Assembly: GCA_951406725.2 (NCBI GenBank)
Contig: OX597827.1
Coordinates: 34,782,001 to 34,846,000 of the forward strand
Length of the DNA: 64,000 bases
Direction of reading: 5' to 3'
Source of the DNA: Octopus vulgaris
Lineage: Eukaryota
Shown: piece after piece, positions 738 through 62,210 of the stretch
Position numbering within the stretch: the stretch's first letter is position 1
Layout: each line of letters opens with the position of its first letter
Program-made: the position numbers and the translations under genes
Notes under the pieces: model-generated
What the model was told of the DNA's origin: nothing
The model's database searches: none
Seen by the model: only the letters and a program-made list of their open reading frames with translations

Positions 738-960
738 TGTGCGCGTGTGTGTGTGTGTGTGTGTGTGTGTTTGCGTTTATCCCCCACCAACGCTTGACAA
801 CTGATATTGGTGTGTTTACGACCCCGTAACTGAGCAGTTCGGCAAAAGAGACCGATAGAATAAGTACTAGGCTTACAAAGAATAACTCCTGGGGTCGATT
901 TGTTCGACTAAAGGTGTTGCACAAGCATGGCCACAGTCAAATGACTGAAACAAATAAAGG
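504..960 (+). mobile_element. tRNA-derived SINE family A, near full length
   Basis: Head GGAGTGGCTGTGTGGTAAG..GGTTCAGTCCC (box A/B-like), CCTTGGGCAA core, internal (TA)/(TG) tract, tail GCATGGCC.CAGTCAAATGACTGAAACAA; more than 10 related copies in window. Confidence 0.9.
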
Positions 961-1022
961 AATATATATATACATACGTATATATATATACATATATATA
1001 TACATACATTTATATATACATA

Positions 1023-1053
<31 letters not shown>

Positions 1054-1169
1054 AATCATATATACATGCATGTATCTACATATAAATATATATATACATA
1101 CATATATATATACATACATATATATACACATATATATATATATAGATACATATATATACCTATATATTC

Positions 1170-1235
<66 letters not shown>

Positions 1236-1279
1236 GTGTGTGTATGTATATATATGAGTAACAAAGAAGTACAGGTATC

Positions 1280-1365
1280 AATTCATTACGGCCGTTTCCA
1301 ACGATTTTAATTGATTAATGAAAACATTAGATCATCGTAAAGAAACCATTTTCTTCAAATGAATT
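1280..1365 (-). ncRNA. Type I hammerhead, degenerate (CUGAAGA->UUGAAGA)
   Basis: Minus strand AATTCAT-TTGAAGA-stem II-GAAA-CGGCCG-TA-ATGAATT; 7-bp stem I, palindromic stem III. Confidence 0.65.
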
Positions 1366-1540
1366 CATGGTCTCCAAGCATAAAGGTTATTAAACGTAGT
1401 TAACAAATTCACGGAGTTAAAATATTTGCATTGATCCTGCTATCATTCAGCTGGTAGAATGATAGCAGGATCAATGTAAATATTTAAACTCCGTGAATTT
1501 GTTAACTATGTTGAATTCAACTTTATGTTTGAAGATCATG

Positions 1541-1629
1541 AATTCATCTGACAAAAACGGTTGCTTTACAATGATGTAATGTTCCCTAAAATCGATTAAA
1601 GGAGTCGTTGGAAACAGGCGTAATGAATT
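1541..1629 (+). ncRNA. Type I hammerhead, degenerate (CUGACGA->CUGACAA)
   Basis: AATTCAT-CTGACAA-stem II (AACGGTT..AGTCGTT)-GAAA-CAGGCG-TA-ATGAATT. Confidence 0.65.
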
Positions 1630-2136
1630 GACACCTGTACCCTCTTTGTTACTCATATTTTATTCACCTATCCTGGAATCTGCGCTTTGTAAATATTATA
1701 GACAGTATTTTTAATATATAGTACATGTCTGAGGAGCTAAGAGCGGATTTCTTCACTCAGCTGGGTCTTATTATTTGCACACACTGCAAGAATATCACGT
1801 GGCTGGCACTTATGCACCATATCTGGTATTCACTTAATATTGTTGCGTATGCAAGTTTCTTCTACTATAGCCTCGGGGACAGCGATTATATAGCACCTGA
1901 AGAGATAAAACTGGATGCCATTATACAGGTAAACTTGTGCCAGGTCGCTCTTGAGCGTAACTGGTAACATGTAACCCATTACAACCTGTCGCATGGTCGG
2001 GTCATCGGCGACTAAACTGGCAACCCTATCAAGTTTGCTTGGTGAGGAGGGTGATTGCTGGACACCCTGCGGGAAAACAATTAAGACCCGTTAAAGGACG
2101 GAAGAAATACTGTGTAATCAAAGGCCAGTTCAAGTA

Positions 2137-2256
2137 CCTTGTCGCGGTGAGGTGCCTGTGTGCTCCATTGACCCGGAGAGCTATGCTGAAGGGAGAGAAG
2201 TCTCCAGGCAGGTCTTACCAGGCCAGACAAGTCGAAGGGTAGGAGACAGACAAAAC
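2137..2256 (+). mobile_element. RTE-clade LINE conserved 5' motif (BovB/Expander-like), no downstream ORF
   Basis: CCTTGTCGCGGTG..GAGAGCTATGC..GCAGG..CAAGTC..GACAAAAC matches from memory the conserved 5' segment of BovB/Rex3-type RTEs. Confidence 0.6.
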
Positions 2257-2311
2257 TTAGCGACAATAAATATATATGTATATATATGTGTATATATTTA
2301 TATGTATATAC

Positions 2312-2356
<45 letters not shown>

Positions 2357-2362
<6 letters not shown>

Positions 2363-2470
2363 ATCCAAACAAGAAAACACAGAAAAAAAAGAGAAAAAAA
2401 GAGAAAAAAACACAGCAACGCAGGACGTGGAACAATTAAAGTATTATTGACGCTCAGGAATGAAGGGAAT
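2357..2470 (-). mobile_element. Truncated copy of the small HHR element family at 5447-5655
   Basis: AGTTAATCCAAAC..GGACGTGGAACAA..GTATTATTG.ACGCTCAGGAA shared with 5447-5532; adjacent to (TA)n. Confidence 0.7.
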
Positions 2471-2519
2471 ATGTATGTATATATATTTGTATGTATAAAT
2501 ATATGTGTGTGTATATATA

Positions 2520-2555
<36 letters not shown>

Positions 2556-2557
2556 TA

Positions 2558-2863
2558 TTTTTATTTGTATTGCTTTTACGTCCTGTTCTTGTCACATTTT
2601 TTTCTTTCCTTGTTTTTACCCCTCTGCAAAGGAATTTTATTTAATTCTTTTGCAGGAAGGATTAGTTCGGCGGGTCGTGTTCTGTCCTTACCTTCGAAAC
2701 ACGCATTGAGTCGAACCAGGGACAGCTGATGAAGGGGAATATTCCTTGTATTGTTTGTCTTGTACTCTGTTTTTTCGTTGTTAAAAAAAAGTCCGTTTCC
2801 TAGTTTGTTTTTATATTTTCGTTTCTCGTTGAGTTCTACGTTTATTTGTGGTGTCCTGTACTC
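2558..2863 (+). mobile_element. Small non-autonomous element carrying a permuted hammerhead
   Basis: ~300-bp unique block between microsatellites, ends in (TA)n, contains the 2665-2735 motif. Confidence 0.55.
2665..2735 (+). ncRNA. Candidate non-circularly permuted (pseudoknotted) hammerhead ribozyme
   Basis: CGTG-TT-CTGTCCTT-A-CCTTC-GAAA-CACG...AGGGACAG-CTGATGA-AGG: stem III CGTG/CACG, stem I CTGTCCTT/AGGGACAG, stem II CCT/AGG, outer helix GTTCGG/TCGAAC. Confidence 0.65.
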
Positions 2864-2936
2864 ATATATATATATATATATGCATGTATATATACATGTA
2901 GATGTAGGTATGTACATATATATATGTATGCATATA

Positions 2937-3056
<120 letters not shown>

Positions 3057-3089
3057 ATGTGAGTATGTATGTGTGTATTGTGTGTGTGT

Positions 3090-3385
3090 AGGCTCAATGG
3101 CAGTGGTTGTGAGTGTTTATTGAGCGAAAGGACCTAAAGCTCCACGGGGCTCCGACAGTGGGTGGTGGCGAACCCTGCTGTACTCTTTCACCACAACTTT
3201 CTCTCATTCTTTCTTCCTGTTTCTGTTTTGTCACACTCTGTGTCACGCTGAATCTCCTCGAGAACTACTTTAAGGGTACACGTGTCTGTGGAGTGCTCAG
3301 CCACTTGCATGTTAATTTCACGAGCAGGACGTTCCGTTGATCGGATCAACTGGAACACTCGTCGACGTAACCGACGGAGTGCCAC
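3090..3385 (+). mobile_element. SINE family B head (internally deleted) with tail shared with SINE at 24736-25060
   Basis: GTTGTGAGTGTTTATTGAGCGAAA..CTAAAGCTCCACG as in 25201; tail TTTGTCACACTCTG..GTGTCTGTGGAGTGCTCAG as in 24900-25060. Confidence 0.8.
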
Positions 3386-5387: not shown

Positions 5388-5441
<54 letters not shown>

Positions 5442-5446
5442 ATATA

Positions 5447-5655
5447 TAGTTAATCCAAACATGAAAACACAAAGAGAAAACACAACAACGCGAGGACGTG
5501 GAACAAGTATAGTATTATTGGACGCTCAGGAAAGAAGGAAAGAAGGAGGGTTTAACGTTTCGAGCGGAGCTCTTCGTCAGAAATATAGGAAAAGGAAAGA
5601 TCCAAAGAAGGGAACACGGAGGAAAAAAATCGCCAACAGTACACACGCGGTCATA
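5447..5655 (-). mobile_element. Small element with minimal hammerhead, inserted in (TA)n
   Basis: (TA)n on both sides; related copies at 2357-2470 and 41953-42100. Confidence 0.7.
5551..5583 (-). ncRNA. Minimal type I hammerhead (Penelope-type)
   Basis: Minus: TTT-CTGACGA-A-GAGC-TCC-GCTC-GAAA-CG-TT-AAA; stem III reduced to palindrome AACGTT. Confidence 0.7.
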
Positions 5656-11639: not shown

Positions 11640-12285
11640 AGGAACGCTTTTGTTAGACCATCAGTTCCCGTACTTGACAAACACTTTATTTATCGACCGT
11701 GGAGGAATGAAAGCGAAGTTGGCAGCGGCATGATTTAAACTCAGAATGTAGAGCTGAAATACACACCGGAAAATAAATTTCCTATGCTCTAACGATTTTG
11801 CTAGCCTACACATATGAATAACAACAACAACAACAACAACAACAGTAATAATAAAAACCTTTCTACTATAGGCACAAAGCCTGAAACTTTGTGAGAGATG
11901 ATAAGTCGATTATATCGACCCCAGTGCTTTACTTGTACTTAATTTATTGACCCCGAAAGGATGAAAGGTAAAGTCGACCTCGCCGGAATTTGAACTCAGA
12001 ACGTAAAGACGGACGAAATGCCGCTAAGTATTTTGTTCGGCGTGCTAACGATTCTGCCAGCTAGCCTTAATAATAATAATCTTTTCTTTTCTAGGCACAA
12101 GGCCCGAAATTTTGGGGGCGGGTCGAGTCGATTATTCCAGTACGCAACTGGTGCTTAATTTATCGACCCTGAAAGGATGAAAAGCAAAGTCGACTTTGGT
12201 GGAATTTGAACTCAGAACGTAAAGGCAGGCGAAATACCACCAAGCATTTCGCCCGGCGGGCTAACGATTCTGCCAGCTCATCTTA
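11640..12285 (-). mobile_element. Three head-to-tail SINE family C copies separated by (AAT)n/(AAC)n
   Basis: Repeated ATCGACCCCGAAAGGATGAAAG..AAGTCGAC..GGAATTTGAACTCAGAACGTA..GCTAACGATTCTGCCAGCT. Confidence 0.85.
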
Positions 12286-12336
12286 ATAATAATAATGATA
12301 CGATAAAAATAACACTTTTCAAGTTTGTGAATTCTG

Positions 12337-12390
<54 letters not shown>

Positions 12391-12397
<7 letters not shown>

Positions 12398-12565
12398 GTA
12401 GAAAAATACAACATGGACAAGAACGTATAACTCTTAGAAGACGACACAATAAACATGGACAGGACATTCGAAACCCTCAGTCTTCAGTCAAGAACCGGAT
12501 CATCGTAGTAATTTCGGCTGATTAATCTTGAGATTACTAGATCACGGCCAGCCCTCCAGAAAATA
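12391..12565 (-). mobile_element. Small (~175 bp) element in (TA)n carrying a permuted hammerhead
   Basis: Unique block bounded by (TA)n on both sides. Confidence 0.6.
12477..12548 (-). ncRNA. Candidate non-circularly permuted (pseudoknotted) hammerhead ribozyme
   Basis: Minus: GCCGTGATC-TAGTAA-TC-TCAAGA-TTAA-TCAG-CC-GAAA-TTACTA-CGAT-GATCCGGT-TCTTGA-CTGAAGA-CTGA; stem III TAGTAA/TTACTA, stem I TCAAGA/TCTTGA, stem II TCAG/CTGA. Confidence 0.7.
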
Positions 12566-25825: not shown

Positions 25826-26608
25826 TGTTTCTTTACTGCCTACAAGGGGCTACACACAGAGGGGACAAACAAGTACAGACAAATGGATTAAGTCGATAAT
25901 ATCGACCCCAGTGCGTAACTGGTACTTATTTAATCGACCCCGAAAGGATGAAAGGCAAAGTCGACCTCGGCGGAGTTTGAACTCAAAATGTAGCGGTAGA
26001 CAAAATATCTATTTCATTACTACCCACAAGGGGTTAAACACAGAGAAGACAAACAAGGACAGACAAACGGATTAAGTTGATAATATCGACCCCAGTGTGT
26101 AACTGGTACTTATTTAATCGACCCCGAAAGGATGAAAGGCAAAGTCGACCTCAGCGGAGTTTGAACTCAAAATGTAGCGGTAGACAAAATATCTATTTCA
26201 TTACTACCCACAAGGGGTTAGACACAGAGAAGACAAACAAGGACAGACAAACGGATTAAGTTGATAATATCGACCCCAGTGTGTAACTGGTACTTATTTA
26301 ATCGACCCCGAAAGGATGAAAGGCAAAGTCGACCTCGGCGGAATTTGAACTCAAAATGTAGTGACAGACGAAATATCTATTTCTTTACTACCCACAAGGA
26401 GCTAAACACAGAGAGGACAAACAAGGACAGACAAACGGATTAAGTTGATTATATCGACCCCAGTGCGTAACTGGTACTTATTTAATCGACCCTGAAAGGA
26501 CGAAAGGCAAAGTCGACCTCGGCGGAATTTGAACTCAGAACGTAGTGGCCGACGAAATACGGCTAAGCATTTCACCTGGTGTACTAACGATTCTGCCAGC
26601 TCGCCACT
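25826..26608 (-). repeat. SINE family C-derived tandem array, 4 x 184 bp with a single head
   Basis: ORFs 26077 and 26261 are near-identical and 184 bp apart; units start ~25826, 26010, 26194, 26378; head only at 26545-26608. Confidence 0.9.
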
Positions 26609-34367: not shown

Positions 34368-35060
34368 GGTTTAAAATTTTGGGACAAGGTAAGCAATTTC
34401 AGGGAAGGGATTAAGTTGATTACAATGACCCCAGTGCTCAACTAATACTTATTTTAGCTACCCCGAAAGGATGAAAGGCAAAGTTGACCCTGGTAGAATT
34501 TGAGCTCAGAATGTAAAGACATGCAGTGCCACTAAGCATTTAGCCTAGCATGCTAATGATTCTGCCAGGTTACCACCTTAATAATAATAATTATAATTAT
34601 AATAGCTCTTTCTATTATAGACACAAAGCTTGAAATTTTGGGGGAGGGGGAAAGTCGATCACATCGACCTCAGTGTTTCACTGGTACTTCATTTATCGAC
34701 CCTGAAAGAACGAAAAGCAAAGTTGACCTTGGTGGAATTTGAACTGAAAATGTAGCGACGGGTGAAACACTGCTAAACATTTTGTCTGCTGTGCCAACGA
34801 TCCTGCTAGCTTGCCACCTTCTTAATAATAATAATAATGATAATTCTTTCTACTAAAGGCAAAAGGCCTGAAATTTGTGGGGGGGGCAACTAGTTGATCA
34901 CATCAACCCCAGTGTTTCAATGGTACTTAATTTATCGACCCTGAAAGGATGAAAGGTAAAGTTGTTCTTGGCAGGATTTAATCTCAGAATGTAAAGACAG
35001 ACGAAATTCCACAAAGCATTTTGCCTGGTGTGCTATCGATTCTGCCAGCTCACCACCTTA
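34368..35060 (-). mobile_element. Three head-to-tail SINE family C copies separated by (AAT)n
   Basis: Same arrangement as 11640-12285. Confidence 0.85.
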
Positions 35061-35155
35061 TTGATAATAATAATAATAATACTGATAATTTTTATGTATA
35101 CATGTTTCTTTGTATGTGTATATGTGTTAATATAATTATATCTATTCTATTGCAG

Positions 35156-45655: not shown

Positions 45656-46369
45656 AACATCATTGTTGTCTTCAGTGACTGTTTCTTATGTTGAAAGTCT
45701 TCAATTTTCTCCTCACTGAGTGTTTCTACCTCCAGGTTCAGTCCATTGTACGAATCAAATGGAATGAATATGGTAAAGAAGAGCTGGCACAAGTAACAAC
45801 AACAGTAACAATACTGACAATAATGACAACAACAAGAAGAATGATATTGACAACAACAACTACTGCAAAGTATAAGGACAGTAATAATAAAAGAATAAAG
45901 CACTAAGAACAAAGCAAGAAGAATAAGGCAATAAAGGAACAGCAACAATATGACAGCAACAACAACAGAAACGATAAGGCAGTAATGACAACAATAATGG
46001 TAAGAACAGCAGCAATATCAAAGCAACAGTGAGAGCAATAAGGCAATAAGGCAATAAGGCAATAACAGCAACAGTAATAACAAGTGTAATAATTAGAACA
46101 ATAACAACAACAATAACAATAGCAATAATGGAATAATAGTAGCAGCAAAAACAAGAAAAAACAAGAGTAAGGCAATGACAACAGCAAAGAAGCAATAACT
46201 GCAAGGAAAACGAGAATATGATAACGAAATAACAACAACAATAAGACAGAAGTGATGTAATTGAGATAATAACAATAAAGACAGCAATAGTCTGAAAAAA
46301 TAAGAATGGCAATCAATATTTGATATAATACAACAGCAATGACAACACCAACAACTACAACAACAATGG

Positions 46370-47130
46370 AGCAATAACTATAACAACAACAGCACCGGTA
46401 GAGTAATGATATAACAACAGCAACAAAAGAGAAATAACTATAGCAACAATAGCAACAACCATGGCAACAATAGCAACAGAGCAATAACTATAGCAACATC
46501 AAAGCAACAACTACATCAGCAATAGCAACAACTGTGGCAACAACAGCACAACAGAGCAATAACTATAGCAACAATTGCAACAACAGAGCAATAAACATAG
46601 CAACAACAGCAACAGTAGAGCAATAAGTATAACAACGATAGCAACAACTATGGCAATAATAGCAACAAAGCAATAACTATAGCAACATCAAAGCAATAAC
46701 TACATCAGCAATAGCAACAACTGTGGCAACAATAGCACAACAGAGCAATGACTATAGCAACAATTGCAACAATAGCAACAGAGCAATAGCTATAGCAACA
46801 TCAAAGCAATAACTACATCAGCAATAGCAACAACTGTGGCAACAACAGCACAACAGAGCAATGACTATAGCAACAATTGCAACAACAGAACAATTAACAT
46901 AGCAACAACTGTAACAGTAGAGCAATAAGTATAACAACAATAGCAACAACCATTGCAACAATAGCAACAGAGCAATAACTATAGCAACATCAAAGCAATA
47001 ACTACATCAGCAATAGCAACAACTGTGGCAACAATAGCACAACAGTAGCAATAACTATAGCAACAACTGTAACAAAAGAGCAATAAATATAGCAACAATA
47101 GCAATAACAGAGCAGTAACTATAACAACAG
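46370..47130. repeat. Higher-order repeat built from CAA/GCA/TAA triplets
   Basis: GCAACATCAAAGC recurs near 46493, 46682, 46795, 46985. Confidence 0.8.
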
Positions 47131-61788: not shown

Positions 61789-62210
61789 CCATTTAGCATC
61801 CAGATTATTGTCAAACGTAATGCTTACCTTTTCACTTTGTTTTGATGTGATCATGCGTTATCTTGTAGTGTCAAGATTAATGTGAGTGCTTATTTTTAGA
61901 TTGACATTGTAGGGTAGGTGTGAGAGGCCTGATCTGGATGGTTTGAACATAAAACAAGCAGGCTATATTGGACTGGTATGGCCAGTTTAACCATTAAGCA
62001 TTTAAACTGGTTATATCTGGTCCAAATATTCTACTTGTTTTATGTTCAAACTGGCCACATCTGGCCTCTCACACCTATCTTACAATGTTATTCTAAAAAT
62101 AAACAATCACATCATCAAAATCTTGAAGTTAGGATATAATGCATGATTAATTCAAACCAGTGTGAATAAATAAGCATTATAAGAATAAGAATAATCTGAA
62201 TGCTAAAGGA
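61789..62210. mobile_element. Two piggyBac-type MITE copies in opposite orientation
   Basis: 61789-61990 and 61991-62210 are reverse-complement relatives joined at TTAA; second ends AATGCTAAAGGA|TTAA. Confidence 0.7.

Follow-up and report, generated by a model that had tools for sequence, protein, structure and literature searches.

The locus examined here raises the question of whether a short motif that carries the letters of a hammerhead ribozyme in an unusual strand order is a ribozyme, and where its chain would be opened. The window analysed (64,000 nt of the Octopus vulgaris contig OX597827.1) had been reported in a preliminary description to hold two sequence-unrelated motifs with one permuted hammerhead architecture. 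All of the strands quoted in that description were found in place between 2665 and 2737, with the second motif near 12553-12481 on the minus strand. The hammerhead core (C3-U4-G5-A6-N7-G8-A9, G12-A13-A14, A15.1-U16.1 and H17) was found to be present in full within 2680-2732, and the placement of its letters agrees with the cut after 2681 that had been predicted. A descriptor covering the six block orders, with offsets allowed, gave exactly two matches in the window, both in the order site-GAAA-CUGA; run as the shuffled control that had been proposed, this order returned 0 matches in 200 local dinucleotide shuffles. The six-order descriptor identified no type I (CGS) hammerhead in the window, and the Rfam search gave no hammerhead match. 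A strict descriptor with the canonical stem II register matched no block order in the window, as stem II is not positioned downstream. Nested folding of the 84-91 nt motif was unremarkable (z of 0.53 and 0.60), which is expected for a pseudoknot. We consider the motif at 2656-2732 to be almost certainly a real conserved structure. The host units of the two motifs, termed families A and B, were found to have only low-complexity sequence in common, consistent with an architecture that recurs in unrelated families.

Table 1. Positions in the window of the two motifs, their host repeats and the predicted parts of the family A motif
Feature	Position	Strand	Basis or detail
Repeat family A, solo copy (~390 nt, ends approximate; unit ~765 nt, non-coding)	2556..2946	+	BLAST to tandem unit in locus L017
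Predicted 13-bp hairpin directly 5' of candidate ribozyme	2624..2655	+	RNAfold
Predicted stem II 5' strand GAAGG (G2656 = G10.1)	2656..2660	+	5 Watson-Crick pairs with 2691-2695; covariation across families
P4 5' strand (outer helix)	2665..2671	+	Pairs with 2710-2716, 7 bp including one G-U
Stem III 16.x strand CGUG (2676-2679), U16.1 (2680), U17 (2681)	2676..2681	+	Descriptor match
Predicted cut	between 2681 and 2682	+	Core-letter placement
Stem I strand 3' of predicted cut	2682..2689	+	8 bp with 2718-2725; pair types vary among families
Stem II 3' strand CCUUC (2691-2695; C2695 = C11.1), then G12-A13-A14-A15.1 GAAA (2696-2699)	2691..2699	+	
Stem III 15.x strand (2700-2703), internal loop, P4 3' strand (2710-2716)	2700..2716	+	
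Stem I partner (2718-2725) and C3-U4-G5-A6-U7-G8-A9 = CUGAUGA (2726-2732)	2718..2732	+	Motif end = A9
Repeat family B, solo copy (844-nt tandem unit elsewhere), (TA)n on its flanks	12381..12563	-	
Second core-split motif	12481..12553	-	Stem II 5' strand 12553-12548; predicted cut between 12532 and 12531

The family A copy of the window sits between (TATG)n/(TA)n microsatellites and corresponds to the 3' part of its repeat. Other repeats detected in the window include: (i) two related fragments of a further repeat beside microsatellites (2360-2470 and 5388-5541), which may represent the minus-strand 3' end of a different Penelope-like element; (ii) a long inverted repeat (61877-62115), probably MITE-like, whose match to an Rfam miRNA model was far below threshold; (iii) a common SINE-like repeat in tandem or single copies (25828-26559, 34446-35081 and 12100-12290; periods 184 and 239); and (iv) a CAA/GCA-rich minisatellite of complex structure, its nested periods ranging over 21-302 nt (46361-47129).

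The partner of the stem II 3' strand was examined in motifs from across the genome, where the pattern CGAAA-N20-30-CTGANGA was matched 42,011 times versus 7,713 for a reversed control; the number of real copies is uncertain. The first 30 listed loci, together with 40 regions picked from the next 70 for distinct sequence, provided 79 distinct pattern matches. Those in which stems I plus III reached at least 8/9 were kept (32 of 79), with positions 16.1 and 17 left free and stem II not used as a criterion; the other 47 had been truncated, had decayed or matched by chance. A perfect 5-bp stem II with the upstream strand was found in 21 of the 32 well-paired matches, and an equally wide search downstream found none (0/32). 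Position 16.1 was U in 30 of these 32 matches, position 17 was C, A, U or G in 20, 9, 2 and 1, respectively, and N7 took all four bases; the invariance of CUGANGA and GAAA is not independent evidence, as both were search terms. In addition, 17 representatives were picked by hand (excluding L276 and the duplicate A2), whose stem II 3' strands were of ten different sequences. The upstream strand paired perfectly over 5 bp in 16/17 compared with 4/244 for strands of foreign families, a test that is partly circular because some representatives had been picked for that pairing. The 10.1-11.1 pair was G-C in 16/16, stem II positions 2-5 displayed 3-4 Watson-Crick pair types, and stems I and III likewise varied, with several pair types per position. 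Family B pairs upstream in the same manner as family A, beginning with G10.1-C11.1. Based on this covariation, stem II is predicted to form with the strand upstream of the outer helix, G10.1-C11.1 first, and not with the strand after CUGANGA; the previously reported range of 2665..2735 leaves out the 5' strand of this helix at 2656-2660.

The same covariation refutes a chance arrangement amplified by transposition. Copies within one family are indeed not independent of each other, as such an account would have it; however, the ten different stem II 3' strands, matched by an upstream partner in 16/17 representatives, and the empty shuffles leave its probability negligible, in keeping with the earlier judgement that chance was unlikely. 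The locus L276 had been taken as a compensatory change in stem II and was dropped, since one mutation next to the usual strand explains it better. A lone split-layout match at locus L246 (minus strand) has a 7-bp upstream stem II that opens with C-G rather than G-C, and may be chance or another family.

The order site-GAAA-CUGA has been published as type SGC, identified from metatranscriptomes, and types SGC and CSG cleave in vitro (PMC10085705, cited here and below from the accessible portion of the article). The motif might thus be an ordinary type SGC hammerhead, in which stem II would derive from the strand after CUGANGA with a 2-nt offset or an A10.1-C11.1 mismatch. Downstream pairing is possible in family A (3-4 bp in four registers) and family B (4 bp), and 10.1-11.1 mismatches occur in Hydra Penelope-like element (PLE) hammerheads. 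However, the after-A9 pairing on which the preliminary description had built stem II was absent or weak by duplex energy in families C, D, F, H, J, M, N, and O; an offset of 2 nt ahead of GAAA, described earlier as shared, was not conserved across families; and no downstream register was common to them. The upstream helix was the more stable in 19/19 rows of the duplex-energy comparison (marginally in G2; for family H the second of two like strands was used as the stem II start). Together with the 0/32 perfect downstream pairings versus 21/32 upstream, these results make the ordinary SGC reading very improbable. Pairing of the 5' flank with the strand after A9, as a helix closing the motif, was also considered and set aside (permutation p=0.27); it was convincing only in family E, which alone has a 6-bp helix beginning directly after A9. 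A short conserved CGAAUG-like word was noted ~8-15 nt 3' of A9 in the B, D, H, J, K, and M representatives.

With the upstream register, the strand order becomes II'-P4-III-UH-I-II-GAAA-III'-P4'-I'-CUGANGA, and the predicted chain is open between A9 and G10.1, the fourth opening of the strand cycle represented by SGC, CSG and GCS. Eckert et al. 2023 assumed the block of CUGANGA plus stem II strand to be uninterruptible (PMC10085705); the split layout is opened inside that block and, therefore, belongs to none of the six described types. In comparison with type SGC, the motif has (i) the order site, GAAA, CUGANGA; (ii) a counterpart of the stem I-II interaction helix in the predicted P4; and (iii) no intact block C, that is, no stem II strand directly 3' of CUGANGA in the well-paired matches. 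P4 occupies the place of the interaction helix of SGC-1, linking the strand 3' of II' with that 5' of I' (oligos compared by eye; PMC10085705), and helices of differing sequence (3-9 bp) are predicted at this position in the other families too. The core letters, cyclic strand order and short stem I-to-II linker are also like those of SGC, CSG and GCS. By contrast, the rearranged ribozymes of Eckert et al. come from metatranscriptomes plus one bacterial GCS candidate, whereas the split layout is found in thousands of copies in animal retroelement DNA; SGC and CSG cleave in vitro (PMC10085705), whereas cleavage of the split layout is predicted from sequence. The accessible part of the supplement to that article does not mention octopus or mollusc. 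A precedent for departure from consensus at this linkage is the CChMVd (+) hammerhead, in which a natural extra A between A9 and G10.1 is tolerated (PMC3705267, in its accessible part), but there by a 1-nt insertion in a continuous strand and not by an opening. Tolerance of an extra nucleotide at this linkage makes an opening there plausible, not proven. A literature search, with most subscription papers outside its reach, found no description of an A9/G10.1 opening or of permuted hammerheads in animal retroelements, and no study in which a hammerhead broken at this linkage was assayed; no such opening is named in the accessible parts of PMC3088659, PMC10162972, and PMC13725137.

The family A motif has a further helix to be accounted for: a G8-A9-containing alternative was computed to be as stable as stem II (-6.2 versus -5.7 kcal/mol), and the best nested fold buries CUGAUGA and GAAA. 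An off state of this type (GAAGG/CCUUC, sequestering G8-A9) had been suggested in the preliminary description. In the A/G group, it could act as a two-state switch, with the upstream GAAGG forming the active core and the identical G8-A9-AGG forming an off state that protects the 3'-terminal copy. The alternative helix was perfect in A and G2, such that the suggestion stands as a possibility for this group (2/17 representatives); it was absent in the other 15/17, and a conserved downstream anti-core hairpin as a general off switch was not supported (permutation p=0.34). We view the switch as rather improbable, yet compatible, as an add-on, with a hammerhead opened between A9 and G10.1.

The hosts of the motif were examined next to its distribution. 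Families A and B consist of non-coding units (765 nt and 844 nt, respectively) that occur solo, in tandem or inverted and are flanked by (TA)n; a first look gave 2806 candidates genome-wide for family A and 1194 for family B. Each tandem unit has one candidate ribozyme and no ORF with a start-to-stop protein signature. No autonomous ORF linked to A or B was found in their loci, nor did tblastn with Naiad fragments match there, and no ORF with N-terminal GIY-YIG and C-terminal RT was identified in them. The organization of A and B, with (TA)n insertion bias, partial tandems and inverted truncated copies, matches Penelope-like elements. Similarly, Naiads are described by Craig et al. 2021 as targeting (TA)n with partial tandems and inverted truncated copies (PMC8557442, again from the accessible portion), features they have in common with A and B; unlike Naiads, A and B are non-coding, with no detected sequence in common with the Naiad RT. 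As these features are shared by Hydra and Neptune PLEs, they are not diagnostic of Naiad, and with no ORF attached to A or B the two families are connected to Naiad by analogy. Families D, E, F, G, and H were found in the flanks of the fetched loci by a descriptor that reports upstream pairing but does not require it. Density along the genome was also sampled: 400 kb of evenly placed stretches (40 x 10 kb) gave 0 strict and 2 loose matches, below the genome mean, and 12 shuffled sets of this sample gave 2 matches. This low yield may reflect either uneven density or enrichment at the start of the sampled contig. Hammerheads of ordinary layout were seen in the same genome, including a ~355-nt tandem unit with a canonical type I hammerhead at locus L061 (3082-4512 on the plus strand, and a minus-strand pair), which is an ordinary retrozyme, and type I hammerhead-like motifs, minimal or canonical, of the sort usual in other Penelope-like families at L063, L068, L071, L079, L086, and L091.

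A direct connection to Naiads was identified through family C, which is the 3' UTR of Naiad elements and matches the published Octopus Naiad 3' end; family C gave 554 exact 14-mer hits against 14. Remnants of the Naiad RT were detected upstream of family C on the same strand in 11/30 loci, never on the opposite strand or downstream of the motif; no intact Naiad ORF was seen in the 30 loci. By eye, the Octopus Naiad 3' end in the literature has the same strand order, with complementarity between the strand that precedes GAAA and a strand upstream of the outer helix. Naiad layouts were judged by eye from part of the CUGANGA occurrences in the PMC8557442 supplement, and the split layout was recognized in Naiad_Obim, Naiad_Ovul, three Acropora Naiads, Naiad-2_Movir, Naiad_Plae and two further entries (parts 9 and 19), which span corals, a box jellyfish, an acanthocephalan, and octopuses. 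Several passages in the arthropod range and one in part 25 did not fit this layout by eye. An intact type CSG, of which only two sequences were reported in 2023 (PMC10085705), was recognized by eye in Naiad-2_Nbra, Naiad-3_Nbra and other entries of the nematode range (parts 13-16), and one nematode Naiad appears to have an extra U between A9 and G10.1 (PMC8557442). In the accessible text of Craig et al. 2021, no canonical hammerhead is reported in Naiads, only 'HHR_core' and 'HHR_half_core' marks (PMC8557442); the full split fold is proposed here for the Naiad 3' ends, where those authors give the core and half-core marks only.

Family E (723 candidates genome-wide) appears to place the motif in a different class of element. 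Its motif stops ~100 nt short of the 3' terminus of an element in which an RT remnant and a zinc-knuckle/endonuclease-like region were recognized; this host is probably a non-LTR retrotransposon (loci L200, minus strand at about 800-3250, L155 and L161). The RT of the host matched RVT_1 below the cut-off (E=6e-06), the host protein clustered at 0.97 in a protein atlas, with zf-RVT in 23% of the cluster members, and no informative PDB match was found for it. We presume endonuclease motifs and a HERO/R2-like clade label for this host, which would make it a restriction-like-endonuclease element, a class whose RT precedes a zinc knuckle and a PD-(D/E)XK endonuclease. The stem I and stem II strands of family E are nearly identical by eye to those of the acanthocephalan Naiad_Plae, a likeness hinting that ribozymes may have been exchanged between element classes.

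Given that a self-cleaving motif may leave a record in the 5' ends of insertions, copies were sampled in listing order by an anchor 3' of the predicted cut, giving 97 B-type copies from the first 100 of 6,252 matches and 73 family A copies from 70 loci of 205 matches. Among these 97 B copies, the frequency of 5' junctions per nt was ~0.024-0.028 over the 12 nt 3' of the cut and 0.003-0.006 on its 5' side. By a second method, 26/79 at-risk family B junctions were located in the 12 nt 3' of the cut versus 5/53 in the 12 nt 5' of it (p=0.0017), and four of those five 5'-side junctions were by eye full copies with mismatches or an internal deletion. In family B the excess extended over -16..0, and junctions were more numerous at -9..-13 than at the predicted bond; pausing of the RT in the knot may therefore contribute, and such pausing and A/T microhomology with the target are possible sources of the junction pattern. 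At locus L379, a dimer was found to start exactly at one predicted cut and to span one unit plus the next motif. Family A displayed no pile-up at the cut (1/73 copies at -2..+1); its narrow test was not significant (8/57 versus 2/49, p=0.10), and its truncations were more common 3' than 5' of the cut (24/73 versus 6/49, p=0.01). Overall, the junction statistics appear supportive of cleavage in family B and inconclusive in family A.

These results suggest that the family A repeat is likely to self-cleave after U2681 as a hammerhead opened between A9 and G10.1. The upstream strand would supply G10.1-C11.1, the helices would rebuild the usual hammerhead core, and P4 would tie stems I and II together. 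Tandem transcripts may then be cut to 5' ends or monomers, and the cut RNA may be copied into (TA)n by a Penelope-like (probably Naiad) RT-endonuclease, starting ~100-250 nt downstream. About half of the family B copies keep the whole motif; with many such copies, cleavage would be incomplete. For a canonical PLE, uncut RNA was reported as the main substrate, the hammerhead was dispensable for insertion in vitro and protein was needed for cleavage (PMC11167929, accessible portion). Several of these observations would also suit a hammerhead-derived fold that does not cleave, catalysis having been silenced by the break at A9/G10.1, and that retrotransposon tails retain for recognition or RT binding: half of the family B copies retain the motif, hammerhead mutants of a PLE still insert in vitro (PMC11167929), family A lacks a pile-up at the cut, and the motif lies in 3' UTRs (families C and E), where a cut would detach the ORF from the priming end. 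However, canonical PLE hammerheads occupy this same position, the 5' ends of family B drop just 5' of the predicted bond, and U16.1, a non-G at 17, a free N7 and an invariant G10.1-C11.1 form a pattern specific to cleavage. We thus consider a purely recognition-type fold unlikely. Self-cleavage through the split core being the preferred reading, we also favor, with more reserve, a broader proposal: that this seventh layout is the active and standard 3' ribozyme of Naiads in several phyla, with ~30,000 core-intact copies in many families, that it also serves an unrelated non-LTR tail, and that the 5' ends of insertions preserve a record of its cuts in vivo.

Families A and B are comparable to the non-LTR retrozymes of animals, which in the accessible parts of PMC7229834 and 10.64898/2026.07.22.740005 are described as non-coding tandem units with one ribozyme per unit and are proposed to be PLE-derived; A and B have the same non-coding tandem organization with one ribozyme each. 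Retrozymes carry type I hammerheads and have been shown to form circular RNAs, whereas A and B have the core-split form and are represented here by genomic DNA only. If the split layout proves to be active, it would add an arrangement excluded by an assumption of the published scheme of six permutations, and the A9-G10.1 bond would be dispensable for hammerhead catalysis. Hammerheads permuted in a non-circular manner would go from rare RNAs of metatranscriptomes to abundant genomic elements of animals, and the reported absence of hammerheads in Naiads would be resolved. Furthermore, the nematode Naiads with type CSG and the other Naiads with the split layout would form a natural series for the origin of ribozyme permutations.
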